Assembly (NCBI GenBank): GCA_044231675.1
Contig: CM094664.1
Coordinates: 14,168,162 to 14,232,161 of the forward strand
Origin: Synchiropus picturatus
Taxonomy: Eukaryota
DNA length: 64,000 nucleotides
Direction: 5' to 3'
In this document: in pieces, positions 19,293-57,521 of the stretch
How the letters are laid out: the number at the start of each line of letters is the position of its first letter
How positions within the stretch are numbered: the first letter of the stretch is position 1
Program-made: the position numbers and the translations under genes
The notes under the pieces: model-generated
What the model was told of the DNA's origin: nothing
Seen by the model: the letters and a program-made list of their open reading frames with translations, nothing else
Databases searched by the model: none

Positions 19293-21877
19293 TGAGAAGA
19301 AAACTGCATTTTCTGTGAGTGCGCCGTCTAGTGGGGGGACGCGGAAATTGCAGCGAACAGTAATGTCATTTTGGAGCAGAGGATCATGGGGATATTAGTA
19401 CTGCTGAGACAAGATAGTGGCTGCATTGACGTGAAAGTTGACCACACAAACCAGTGTCGACCAAGACGCTCGTGAGCCCAGGTCCCACTGCACGAGCTTT
19501 GCAACTCAGCGACGGTTTAATAAGGTGTGCAGTGACTGGCTTGATGGGCTGGATGTGGCCAATTTTTCCTGGTGTGACAGTGGATTGCATGCAGTTTCCA
19601 CAAGCGCGTCTCTTCTCCGCTCTCTGTCCATCAGCAGCACGTGACAGCGTTTGGCAACAGGTGCGCGCAGTCAGCACAAGCCTTCCCTGTGTTCATCCAT
19701 TATTGATGAGAAGTCAAAGGCTGCAGATGAATGTGATTATCCCTGCAGGGAGGGCACTTTCCCGCCGAGACCGCAGCGGCGATCGCCTGTCAATACGAGC
19801 ATCAGTGAAGACGAGACTCTGAGTCCTGCATATTTATCGTGCTGTCCACCAGGAGGCGCTTCTAAAGAGAGTTCCCTGGAGGTGCTTTATTTTAAAGTCA
19901 ACCTTAGCTCCTGTACAAACAGGATGCGGGAAAGTATTTCACCACATTGGCCTTCTTTTAATGATTTTTGAGGAAGGTCAAGATTAGAAACAAAAGCCTC
20001 TCAGAGTTCAACAGCTCAAGGGAACCAAGGAAGGCACTTCATCTCGGCTGAATTAAAAGGTTTTCTTTCCTAAGTGCACTTTTAATGGACCCAAGCTTTT
20101 ACAGACGCGCGCAGAAACACTCAAAGAAATGTTTCTCACGATGTCCTTTAGCAGCTGATGAAGATGAGGGAGAGCTTCACGTTCATCTCTGAGAGTTAAC
20201 ACGCGCTCGCCGTGACATCATCGGCGTGGACGAGCGTTCAAACCAACTTGGAGTGGAGAGCTCTGCAGACTTGGTCCCGGCTCCGAGGATTTGCCCTGCG
20301 AGGAGTCAAACCTTGAAACGTGTTGACGTGATCCTCAGAAGTGTGATCAATCCCAGCGACATTTCAAAGTGTTGCTCAGCCTCCGTGCGAGAGGCTGTCA
20401 GGAGAGAAACCCGAGCCGCCGGCGAGAATAAAGCATCTTAAATGTCTCATCGCAGCCCGAGAAATCGGCCTCTGGATTAACGCGCGGAGGGATATTTTCA
20501 ATTCTCACATGCCGGTTTCTCATGTGTGATTGAAGCCGGGAGGTTAAGATGCATGAAAATAGTTAGTCATGTTAAAGCAGTTTGTTCTTTTTCCTCCCAC
20601 TGGAGACACGCAAACGGTTGAAGTTCGCTGACACACTTACCGACCTGAATATCATATTTGAGGCGTTTAAACTGTGTGAAGTTTATTCAATGTGACGAAT
20701 ACAAGAAGCCGTTCTGAGAACTTTAAGAAGCTTGGAAAGCTCCCTGAAGCTGCAGCAGACTGAGAATAAAAAGGCCCAAATGAGTCTTCAGTACAGATAC
20801 TTTTCGAGCATCAATATTTTAATCAACCTTCAGGAAGACTCGATCCGCCATGATGAAGAATGTCGGGTCCCGAGCGCTGATCCAGGACCGTCTCACTTTA
20901 GAGTCAGAGTGTCCAGTAAACTTCCGACTTGTCGTACGTTGATTCACTTCCACTGCAAACATCAGCTCCAGAGCAGCAGCTCTTGGCTGATTACACAGCC
21001 AATATGCAGATTGAGGCTGTTCGCACTTCTTCAGGCGCCAGTTAACCTGCGAGTCAACTGCAGCGGAGGGAGGTGATGAGAGGCGACGGCCAGATGGAGG
21101 CGATGAGCGAGGCGGAGAGCTGGATTCATCAGAGCCAATATTATTTTAACATCGCAACAATGGAGCTGTCACACGCCATCAAACGCGTTAGATGTAAAAT
21201 TAGATTCCTCTATTTATAAATGGATCACTGACAGTTGTGTCAGGAAATCTTTTTAATCTTCTTCTGTCACGTTGGGAAGAAGTTGCAGCGCACACATGTG
21301 GGCAGCGCAAAACGACATCAGTCAGCGAATCGACACATTTCTGAGTTTCTTAGCTGCATGAGGCTGACATCACTTCCTGTTCCTGTGTATCGGGATGAGA
21401 GTGTGTCAACTGTAGGAGTTGCTGCTTTGTACCTCGGTAGGATTCACTCATTTGGCTGGGACTCGCTTGATATTGTAGAGTCAGAAGAGACTCCAGAAGG
21501 TGGCTGTGGAGGAAGTTAAACCTGGTCAACAGTTAGAGAGACTGACCGCAGTAAATCCATGAGAGTCAGGTGCTTTGAATTCTGCTGATTCAGCATGCCT
21601 TTTGAATATGAACGAGTGTATGGGGAGGCGGAGAGATGAAGGTTGTAGATACACATTTGGCTGACATTTTTGTTGAAGAGGAACTTATTTATGAAGGTCT
21701 AAGAGGAGTGATAACCGATGTAGACGACGATAGGTCCCTTGCTCCTCCTTCAGGCTGTTGATGGGGCCTTAGCTATGAAGCTCCTCCATCAGTGACCTCA
21801 TTGCTCAAGAGAACACTGTATCTTTTCACCGTTAGGAGACGACCGGCCTGTCCTTCTACTGGAGCAGATCTGACTGA

Positions 21878-22326
<449 letters not shown>

Positions 22327-22439
22327 GTTTGTTTTGTGCTCTTCATTTCCAAGTGTTTTAAATAGAAGCGCGAGGTACGAGTCAGTTAATCCACCTGCTC
22401 TCTCAAAGCGGGCTCTGTCGATGAGCAACCGACCCTGTG

Positions 22440-23230
22440 ACACACCCTAAAAGCATCTTTGCCAAGCTGCTCACCTGAACACTTATGAAACACTGGTGAT
22501 GCAGCCAGTCCACTCATTGATAAGTTGATGCAAACATCATCCGTTCATTACTCACTCATACGTCCAATAAACACAGTTCCTACAGTTCTGACCCATTAAT
22601 CCATCCATCAGTTGTGGAGTTCATTAATCATTTTAATTCACCCTTCTGAAACATTCACCCATTAAACATCGTGCTTTCTTGGTTGAGCCAGTGAAATTGT
22701 CTTTTCATTCCTTCTTATTTTCACCACCCAACTGGAAATTCATCCCTCCGTCCAGCCATTGATTCACTCATCAACACAGTCATCCATAAATTGAACAGAA
22801 CAGCCGAGCCTTCACTCATTCGCCTGGTTTCGTGCCCACACATTCATCCATGCATCCGTTGAAGACTTTCTTACTTTTAATCCATTCAGCCATGTATGCT
22901 CCTAGTCATCCCTTCACAAGCTGTTCATAATTCACTCATCAACCATGACATCTCTTTGCAATGGACTTTCATCCATCATCCGTTCATCTGTGATTCAACA
23001 GTCACGCCTCTCTTTTAGTAAATCCACCCTCATCCATCAGAACCCTCCACCATTCACCACCTCACTCTACCCTTATTCCACTATCCAACATCTCTGGTCA
23101 CAGTGTGTTACCACATTCATGTGTTCACCCATCCATCCACTCACTGTATCACCGCTAATGCGCTGTAACTGCCCTGTGAATACAAGCCAGAGTCCAACAA
23201 CGTTGTTTTCCCCAGTCGCCTTCTCGTTCT
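22440..23230. repeat. Low-complexity (CATYCA / TCACTCA)n-like block in CNTNAP intron 5
   Basis: Dense recurrence of catccatc, cattcac and tcactcatc words. It is stop-poor in one frame (ORF 22945-23241). Confidence 0.6.
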
Positions 23231-54003: not shown

Positions 54004-54799
54004 TGCTAGCGAGCTCAGCCTCACTGTGTGACTGGAACATATCAGAATCAGAATTTTATTTTTTTATTGCCAAGGTGAGTGAGGATCCCACCAACCAGGA
54101 AAGTGCTTTGGAACAACGTGCAATAATGAACAAAACGTAATAATAATAAGAATAATGATAAGAATAATAATAAACAGAAAAATACAAGAGATATCGAGAC
54201 ACATAATATTGCCGGTGAGGTGAGGAGAGGATTTTTAGGATTCAAATGAATGTAAATGGATTCAAGGGGTAAAAGCAGCGAGCAAACCCTTTATCAATTT
54301 TATTGTATTATTTATAAAACCTCATGAATATTTACCGCCTTCATTTACAACAGCGTGACGAGGGAACTGTGCTTGTCCTGGAACTTTCCTGAATTCTGCC
54401 AGAGGGGACTGAAGAGTATAAAACTTGTTATATATTGTTGTATATTGTTGCATGTTCGGAGCGAACGAATACTTGTCAGCTGTCGCCGTTTCCCGCGGCT
54501 GCTGCAGCTCTGGCGCCACCTGCAGGTCAAACGTCGCATTCTCACTTGTATCCTCTGCCCACGACCTCCAGAGGTCACGTGATCGTCCGGCTGAGGATCG
54601 GTAAGATGGATGAACGGCTGAGTGAATGAATGGGTGAACGTGACAACACTCAGATCCCGCTCAGGTGAGCGCCACCTCACTGTCAACAAGACACGAGCGC
54701 CTTCATGTGGCGGAGTAGCGTACTGGACCAGAACAAGCGACTGAAAAGTAAACACAAGTTAAATGACTGACTCGGCAATGACGTCATAATACTTTTTTT

Positions 54800-56885
54800 T
54801 ATTGTGACAGGGAGTCATAAAAATGGAGAGAACTAAATACAATAGAAAAAGGAGGGCTGTGGATGTACAGAGGGACGACAGACGGGTGCAGCGCTCGACG
54901 GTTGGCACAGAAAAGGAACACTTGAATTTGGCTTCAGAAATAACTATAAAAAAGAGGAGCAACGTCTTCATCACAAGATCCTTCATCAAAACATGCTTTG
55001 TAAAATCACAGGGTTTCAGTAGCTTCATAACAAAGATGCACACGCAACACGTCCATCTGTGGCGTCGACAGGCCGAGTACATGTTCCAGATTTTTAGAGC
55101 TTTTTTTTATGTTTTTAAGACGAGCACTAAACAACTGGCCCGTCTCCAGGATGCTTTTCATACTAAAATATATTATCGTATCAAGTCGACTACAAGTTCA
55201 CTACACTGTAATAAATAACTCGACAGAAAATATAAAAATAAAAACATAAATATGAAAAAAAAAGCGACTAAAACTGTGAAATTAATACTGACAACAACAA
55301 AAAAAAAAACGGTACAAAACCATGAAAACACTGGTTGGTAAACTGTTCACTCGTGTTTGTTCCCAAAAATTTTATTTTATTTATTTAATTTTTAAACATT
55401 CATAACAATGTAATTTATTTTCAGATAGATTTGTGACACTTTTACCCATATTTTGCAGCAGTTATTTTTAGTTTGATTTTTATCTATTTAAAATATTTTT
55501 TGCGAAAATAGCTTTTGTTCTTTTCATCTCGAAATAATTCAATTTCCAATTTCTTTCTTTCTTATATTATAATGCCACAATCGATGCTCCTCAAGGATCA
55601 TTGGGAAATTTTTCATCACAGTGCAACTTCTCTGATTTTTTTCTGAAGACATTCTTCAAAATAAAACCCTGAAAACTCACTGTTATTTTAAAATTCATGT
55701 ATAAAATTGGAGTCAAGGTTTGGTCTGGCATCTCCTCACGTTGAATATGTTTATTATTTTTTATTATTAGAAATAGAAATCAAAGCGAAACAAATGGCAC
55801 ATCATTTATTTACACTAACCTTTGGTGTTGTGTTAGTGGAGGAGCCACAGAGGTCAAAGCACAAACATGACTTTTAATCTTCTCTGAAACCAAATTATTT
55901 CATGTAAAAAAAGAGGGACAAAACACTTACACGCTTCAGTAAAAGTTATTAGTGAACCTAAAAACATGATCACTCACATAATATTTCATTTTATTTTAAA
56001 GCTGCAGAAAATAATGACCATCATTCATCTGCACTTTGGATCACCACAGGGGGCGCTGCTCGTCCCACAGTGCAAACGTGAAAACTCATTTTTTTTCGAA
56101 GAAGCAAAGGTGGATGTGACAGTGGTTTGATGAAAGCGAGGGAACAAACATGAGTGAACGTGGGTAACAGACAGCGGCTACACGCGACAGAAACACTGTT
56201 CAATGGCACTTTAACAGCACACCGGTCTTGCATAAGGCTGGAGGCGTCGCGCGGCTCCTCGCTTCAGACCAACCCGGCGACATCCGGAGCATGTTACGAA
56301 GAGGCGCATGGGTTTTTTTTCAGAGCCAAAGACGCCCCCTGCTGGCTTTTGACTTCCCTGATAGGACTGATTTGGTGATACTGAAGCCGCGGTCACGTCC
56401 CGCCCCTCCCTCCCCGCCCCTCCCTCGTTTAAGGCTAACAGTCAACTAAAACGGTCGCTAGCAAAAGGCTACACAGTCGACGACGTGTCGCTAGCGGTAA
56501 CACGCGAGTAACACTGAAGGGCGTACGTGTATCCGCACAGGAATACTGTAGTGCACAGGTTTGTTCGTAGAACTCAATAAAATACTGATTCTCGGAGACA
56601 TTGGCAATAAAAAGGTTTAGAAATAACTTTACAGGTTCCGATCTAAAGGTTAGTAACACTGACGCCATGACAAACAAACAACCGTCTCAGTAACTAACAA
56701 AGTTTAAAATCTTCTATAAACAATTTTAACACTGATATTTTTGTTAAACTTCACAAGGAAAAAAAAAAAGGATGTTTTTTTTTTTTTTCTCTTTTTCGTT
56801 TTCAGGCACGCCGGGGTGTTTGTACACAGTAGTGGACCGTTTTGGACCAGGCGGCGCCGGAGTCCCACTCACCAGCCCAGGAGGT
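54800..56885 (-). other. zeb1: 3'UTR of the ZEB1-like gene (minimum extent to 55284 from miR-200 sites; poly(A) site not fixed; candidate AATAAA on the - strand near 54797-54802 and around 55370)
   Basis: Region downstream of the TGA at 56886-56888 on the - strand. It contains 8 perfect miR-200 family 7-mer seed matches. Confidence 0.6.
55284..56734 (-). promoter_or_regulatory. Cluster of 8 miR-200-family seed matches in the ZEB 3'UTR. mRNA-sense CAGUGUU (miR-200a/141) at + coordinates 55327, 56192, 56510, 56655 and 56728; mRNA-sense CAGUAUU (miR-200b/c/429) at 55284, 56542 and 56581.
   Basis: The + strand carries AACACTG five times and AATACTG three times within about 1.45 kb. The random expectation for 7-mers at this density is far lower. 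The ZEB1/ZEB2-miR-200 feedback loop is established biology. Confidence 0.75.

Positions 56886-57521
<636 letters not shown>

Follow-up and report, generated by a model that had tools for sequence, protein, structure and literature searches.

Eight conserved miR-200 seed sites in the probable ZEB1 3' untranslated region of the dragonet Synchiropus picturatus

Does the sequence that follows a zinc-finger coding exon on the minus strand of a dragonet contig form ZEB1's 3' untranslated region (3'UTR), and are the matches to miR-200 family seeds that it contains likely to be real target sites? The question was raised by a window of 64,000 nucleotides (nt) from Synchiropus picturatus (Callionymidae; assembly GCA_044231675.1, contig CM094664.1, positions 14,168,162 to 14,232,161), for which an initial annotation had proposed a ZEB 3'UTR carrying eight such matches. 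The present analysis indicates that the stretch is very probably the minus-strand 3'UTR of the dragonet ZEB1 gene, with eight canonical miR-200 sites. All coordinates below are positions in the window, which is the whole stretch of DNA analysed, and numbers preceded by "UTR" are counted in nt from the stop codon.

The ZEB1 coding sequence and the sites downstream of it

Splice-consistent exons were identified on the minus strand at 60298-60181, 59935-58266, 58189-58012, and 57457-56886, with the TGA stop codon at 56888-56886. The top protein match of the spliced 845-residue product was the ZEB1-like protein of Synchiropus splendidus, with 98% identity over 100% of the query, and other percomorph zeb1/zeb1a proteins matched at about 60%. 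Among the best 120 matches listed, every one bearing a gene name was ZEB1 or zeb1a, and none was ZEB2. The alignment to the S. splendidus protein was colinear over its residues 210-1057, with scattered substitutions and two indels (one of four residues and one of a single residue). Moreover, tblastn mapped ZEB1 residues 29-1057 to 64000-56886, including N-terminal finger exons at 61662-60176, revealing that the window holds almost the entire gene, which runs past its right-hand end. C2H2 finger matches covered query residues 11-73 and 623-724, and the matched proteins carry zf-C2H2 Pfam families. The PLDLSLP string, which includes the CtBP-binding PLDLS motif, was readable in the translated large exon, and a homeodomain-like stretch was visible in the translation by eye, without a profile score. 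Because of this protein similarity, the coding sequence upstream of the sites is assigned to ZEB1 rather than ZEB2, and the number of sites plays no part in the assignment. The proposal of a ZEB 3'UTR downstream of the minus-strand stop was thus borne out, with the sites on the sense strand and an arrangement that matches the documented miR-200/ZEB1 architecture (10.1101/2025.04.29.651088; PMC3696638; PMC2396950).

A pattern search of the minus strand found five copies of CAGTGTT (miR-200a/141 class, hereafter a) and three of CAGTATT (miR-200b/c/429 class, hereafter b) between 56734 and 55284, eight in all, lying on the sense strand 152-1602 nt from the ZEB1 stop codon (Table 1). The same five and three matches had been reported in the initial annotation, with five of them placed within 230 nt and about 0.2 expected by chance. 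These figures hold: the densest group comprises five of the eight sites in 225 nt (56510-56734), and chance would place 0.19 sites in the 1451-nt span if the density elsewhere in the window is taken as background, or 0.26 if local base composition is used. For eight observed sites, the Poisson probability P(>=8) is approximately 4e-11. On the plus strand, neither word occurs between 51647 and 59114, and the enrichment is therefore strand-specific. In addition, a scan of all 7-mers in 56885..54790, made without reference to any seed, returned CAGTGTT as the top over-represented non-homopolymer word, with CAGTATT near the top, so that the signal is independent of the prior choice of seeds.

Four of the eight sites (56734, 56661, 56516, and 55290) are 8mers with a 3' A, and the remaining four are 7mer-m8 matches. 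In the mature microRNA (miRNA) sequences used for seed assignment and duplex prediction, the seeds are the secure part. With these sequences, RNAduplex predicted unremarkable pairing driven by the seed, at -8 to -18 kcal/mol, and nothing striking in 3' supplementary pairing, and the energies were counted as evidence neither way. Besides the eight, a ninth CAGTATT on the minus strand (58830-58824) falls in the large coding exon, where its codons encode S-I and the S. splendidus protein reads S-V; it was rejected as a site and is probably a chance match.

Table 1. Features at the 3' end of the dragonet ZEB1 gene, in window coordinates; species fractions refer to the seven other teleosts compared
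Feature	Coordinates	Strand	Type or motif	Conservation or support
Last ZEB1 coding exon	56886..57457	-	C-terminal zinc fingers and acidic tail	Splice-consistent open reading frame; tblastn, S. splendidus ZEB1-like residues 869-1057, 98% identity
Predicted full ZEB1 3'UTR	54780..56885	-	About 2.1 kb	MAFFT profile and independent BLASTN blocks
Site 1	56728..56734	-	miR-200a/141, 8mer, CAGTGTTA	Exact in 6/7, family seed in 7/7
Site 2	56655..56661	-	miR-200a/141, 8mer	6/7
miR-182 seed match	56601..56607	-	TTGCCAA, 20 nt 5' of site 3	6/7
Site 3	56581..56587	-	miR-200b/c/429, 7mer-m8	7/7
Site 4	56542..56548	-	miR-200b/c/429, 7mer-m8, 39 nt after site 3	6/7
Site 5	56510..56516	-	miR-200a/141, 8mer	Exact in 6/7, family seed in 7/7
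miR-183 seed match	56203..56209	-	GTGCCAT, 11 nt 5' of site 6	7/7
Site 6	56192..56198	-	miR-200a/141, 7mer-m8, end of most conserved UTR element	Exact in 6/7, family seed in 7/7
Site 7	55327..55333	-	miR-200a/141, 7mer-m8, first of distal pair	4/7
Site 8	55284..55290	-	miR-200b/c/429, 8mer, second of distal pair	6/7
miR-205 seed match	54979..54986	-	ATGAAGGA, 8mer	7mer-m8 in 4/7; 7mer-A1 in Parambassis
miR-96 seed match	54902..54908	-	GTGCCAA	6/7
Probable poly(A) signal	54798..54806	-	CACAATAAA, with AATAAA at 54803-54798	Identical in 6/7; last conserved word

Positional conservation among teleosts

Seven teleost zeb1 loci, each with 10 kb of 3' flank, were compared with the window. Aulostomus and Syngnathus belong, like the dragonet, to the order Syngnathiformes; Gasterosteus, Parambassis, and Solea are other percomorphs, Polymixia is a basal acanthomorph, and Aplochiton belongs to the Galaxiiformes. 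The initial annotation had made its reading depend on the presence of the sites in orthologous UTRs, and they recur in all seven zeb1 3' flanks: at least four miR-200 7-mers were found in the first 2-2.8 kb past the stop at every locus, and 9-12 at six of the seven (Table 2). Syngnathus, with at least four sites, has a diverged UTR in which the poly(A) signal could not be aligned.

Table 2. Counts of CAGTGTT (a) and CAGTATT (b) from the stop codon to the conserved poly(A) signal
Species	a	b	Total
Window (S. picturatus)	5	3	8
Aulostomus	5	4	9
Gasterosteus	6	3	9
Parambassis	7	5	12
Solea	5	5	10
Aplochiton	2	7	9
Polymixia	5	6	11

The arrangement of the sites is shared as well. In six of the seven species (not Syngnathus), two sites are followed by a b-b pair, by a further site, and finally by one embedded in a highly conserved element, with a b-b spacing of 39-43 nt. 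Most species also carry a distal a-then-b pair with its members 43-71 nt apart, in place of which Syngnathus has two b sites separated by 41 nt. A MAFFT alignment pairs every window site with a counterpart site in most species. Exact retention of sites 1-8 averages 5.9 of seven species, and retention as either family seed averages 6.25. By comparison, 1990 control 7-mers from the same UTR were retained in a mean of 0.73 of seven species, only 5.5% of them reached six of seven, and the observed mean was not attained once in 100,000 random draws of eight controls. Furthermore, of the window 7-mers retained by six or all seven species, the miR-200 seeds and TCAGTGT, a word overlapping CAGTGTT, recur at three or more separate positions. 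TTTTTAT was the sole other word to do so, and four more words, three of them AT-rich, recur twice. Judging from these alignments, the array dates back at least to the common ancestor of the sampled euteleosts.

Compared with the other euteleost zeb1 UTRs, the window has in common the site order, the b-b spacing of about 41 nt, the element combining a miR-183 match with a miR-200 site, the distal a-b pair, and the terminal CACAATAAA, whereas Syngnathus departs from several of these features. The window differs in having eight sites rather than 9-12 and an unalignable AT-rich middle of its own, approximately 750 nt long. Also missing from the window, though present in most of the other species compared, are a b site some 30 nt 3' of site 6 and one or more additional sites 5' of the miR-183 element; on the evidence of this comparison, these have been lost in the dragonet.

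In Syngnathus scovelli (zeb1 UTR at locus positions 19858-23000), the proximal sites lie approximately 350 nt further downstream and several sites have been lost; a b-b pair is found at UTR 2877/2918, and the conserved CACAATAAA is unalignable.

The transcript end, the regulatory circuit and rival readings

Conservation also bears on where the transcript ends. The MAFFT profile shows high identity across UTR 1-750, little across 751-1500, and a second well-conserved stretch at 1500-2100, after which identity collapses. BLASTN searches, which involve no multiple alignment, returned blocks in most species at about UTR 45-460, 636-694, 1627-1744, and 1855-2089, and found no match past UTR 2089 in the seven loci with a query that reached UTR 3085. 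Since conservation extends up to but not past CACAATAAA, the 3'UTR is most likely about 2.1 kb long and ends near 54780, approximately 20 nt after the AATAAA. The minimum of 1.6 kb given in the initial annotation, with the UTR extending to 55284, is valid as a lower bound but too short as an estimate, since the conservation, the miR-205 and miR-96 matches, and the conserved AATAAA place the likely end some 500 nt further. With this end, all eight sites are predicted to lie upstream of the poly(A) site and to be retained in the mature transcript, and the ZEB1 3'UTR becomes annotatable in the window from 56885 to about 54780. Its middle part (56135-55386, about 750 nt) is 69% A+T, unique in the window, and not alignable to any of the seven orthologous UTRs. 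A dispersed repeat was considered for this part and rejected, as its only match in the window is to itself and the seven loci gave none.

As an observation on another locus, the gene annotated in Polymixia lowei (locus 72892-76763) extends to 76763, some 3.9 kb past the stop at 72894 that closes the conserved C-terminal exon; this points to either an artefact of annotation or an alternative terminal exon.

If the whole stretch is transcribed and miR-200 is expressed in the dragonet as in other vertebrates, Argonaute loaded with miR-200a/141 or miR-200b/c/429 would bind these sites in miR-200-expressing cells and lower the stability and translation of the ZEB1 mRNA. Several neighbouring sites are spaced 32-43 nt apart, close to the known range for cooperative miRNA sites, and this spacing would be compatible with cooperative action. 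Repression of the miR-200 promoters by ZEB1 through E/Z-boxes, together with the repression of ZEB1 by miR-200, would then close a double-negative loop in the dragonet.

Human ZEB1 reportedly carries eight miR-200 sites (5 b + 3 a). Mouse Zeb1 has nine (5 b + 4 a), with a/b conversions across vertebrates (Stefano et al., 10.1101/2025.04.29.651088), and mammalian ZEB1 resembles the window in having clustered, conserved canonical sites of both seed classes in its 3'UTR. The class ratio is reversed, as the window has five a and three b sites. In zebrafish, where the miR-200 family is conserved, RNAhybrid predicted ten miRNA response elements in zeb1b and four in zeb1a, and miR-200a and miR-200b were reported to repress zeb1b via its 3'UTR (PMC3696638). 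The dragonet gene, too, is a ZEB1 from a teleost with numerous response elements for miR-200, and some close database matches to its protein carry the name zeb1a. A multi-site miR-200 target with miR-205 sites is also found in the 3'UTR of a different gene, ZEB2 (SIP1), with eleven miR-200 sites in mouse (10.1101/2025.04.29.651088) and nine miR-200 plus two miR-205 sites in human (as cited in PMC4008290). The count of eight and the mix of seeds, which the initial annotation took as a fit to ZEB1, are consequently not diagnostic, given 9-12 sites in the six teleost zeb1 UTRs with an alignable poly(A) signal, nine in mouse Zeb1, and 9-11 in ZEB2, and the 5:3 ratio of a to b is the reverse of that in mouse (4:5). 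The double-negative loop between ZEB1/2 and miR-200, which it had called well established, is indeed documented for ZEB1 as reciprocal repression (PMC2396950). Earlier publications cover the loop, the UTR with multiple sites, its occurrence in zebrafish, and the flips of seed class described below, and the window contributes a further species to a circuit that is well documented across vertebrates. What it illustrates is that a genuine post-transcriptional regulatory module can be recognised from raw sequence.

Several points weigh against a functional array of eight sites at this locus. Mutation of all nine mouse sites raised the mRNA by a modest 1.3-1.5-fold, although the mutation was physiologically important despite this small effect (10.1101/2025.04.29.651088), and knock-down of miR-200 in zebrafish did not yield the gastrulation phenotype of zeb1 gain of function (PMC3696638). 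The miR-200 genes lie outside the window, in which no Rfam match was obtained, and their presence and seeds in the dragonet are taken from general knowledge of vertebrates. Site 7 (55333) is retained in just four of the seven species. Where the transcript ends, and whether the distal sites are used, is deduced solely from conservation, and six non-conserved AATAAA/ATTAAA hexamers at 55995-55381, in the AT-rich middle, make shorter isoforms possible.

These hexamers are the basis of the alternative that survives best, in which the mRNA mostly ends at one of them, so that only the six proximal sites act and the distal pair, miR-205, and miR-96 matches are usually absent from the transcript. Alternative polyadenylation is frequent in long UTRs, and the hexamers resemble poly(A) signals. 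However, the sequence around them has no alignable counterpart in the seven orthologues, whereas the distal block is conserved exactly to CACAATAAA and no further, a pattern hard to explain unless it is transcribed; a mostly short transcript is accordingly considered unlikely. Even less probable, and offered as speculation, is that the dragonet lineage has remodelled an ancestral 9-12-site array by losing at least two sites and gaining a spacer of about 750 nt with six hexamers, and that poly(A) choice now switches ZEB1 between long and short isoforms. If so, the long isoform would carry the eight miR-200 sites together with the miR-205 and miR-96 sites, and the short isoform would escape the distal sites.

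Alternatively, the motifs could be conserved for a reason other than miR-200, as binding sites of RNA-binding proteins or as a regulatory element at the DNA level. In favour of this, the sites are embedded in longer conserved blocks (e.g., UTR 641-694 and 297-348) that could hold other elements. Nevertheless, several orthologous positions differ by just the G/A change that converts one miR-200 seed class to the other and so keeps a miR-200 seed, namely site 1 in Solea (b class) and sites 5 (b class) and 6 in Aplochiton. Such flips are, on the sequences compared, the pattern expected under selection for binding of the miR-200 family. Class conversion has been reported across vertebrates (10.1101/2025.04.29.651088), and repression through sites of this kind is experimental in mammals and reported for zebrafish zeb1b, leaving a cause unrelated to miR-200 very improbable. 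That the gene is ZEB2 or another ZEB-like paralogue is scarcely credible: the sites alone cannot separate ZEB1 from ZEB2, but the gene-named protein matches and the near-identity to the S. splendidus ZEB1-like protein do. A chance cluster in an AT-rich stretch, for which the shortness of 7-mers and ordinary window-wide totals (17 and 8 against 13.8 and 6.6 expected) might speak, is already refuted by the local, single-stranded excess and by positional conservation far above that of control 7-mers.

Other elements of the 3'UTR and the rest of the window

An Rfam scan of the whole 64-kb window returned no family, and hence no miRNA gene or known RNA family. A Pfam scan of ten long open reading frames, including the plus-strand frame under the UTR (54823-55218) and those just downstream, gave no match. 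Therefore, no coding reading competes with the ZEB1 3'UTR, and no neighbouring gene was identified. In particular, the 54 kb downstream of ZEB1 (window 1-54700) contained no open reading frame of at least 140 amino acids with a Pfam match, no Rfam family, and no gene identifiable by these scans.

A by-product of the comparison is a teleost-wide map of elements in the zeb1 UTR, comprising the miR-200 array, the miR-183 + miR-200 composite, seed matches to miR-182, miR-96, and miR-205, one AU-rich block, and the poly(A) signal; reporter or knock-in experiments in fish could be planned from it. Conservation in the UTR peaks in a single block (UTR 641-694, about 55 nt) with 94-96% identity in six species and 90% in Syngnathus. 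Inside it lies the composite element (56209-56192), formed by the miR-183 match and miR-200a site 6. The miR-182, miR-205, and miR-96 matches are collinear among the species, with the latter two located between site 8 and the poly(A) signal, outside the minimum UTR of the initial annotation. Mutual repression between ZEB1 and both miR-183 and miR-96 has been reported in mammals (PMC5173173). Six of the seven other fishes share collinear seed matches to miR-101/144 and miR-139, which the window lacks. Seeds of miR-150, miR-130/301, miR-23, miR-128, miR-33, miR-203, and miR-455 were also scanned for and were absent or non-conserved in the window.

Two further features of the UTR were observed on the minus strand. 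A G-rich tract, GGGAGGGGCGGGGAGGGAGGGGCGGG, lies at approximately 56425-56395 and could form an RNA G-quadruplex; the orthologous position is G-rich in most other teleosts, with GGGG or GGGTGGG runs. Moreover, a conserved AU-rich block at 55253-55155, just 3' of the distal miR-200 pair, contains ATATTTATGT, TTATTTTTATATTTTCT, and TAATATATTTTAGTATGAAAA in this order and looks like an AU-rich element.

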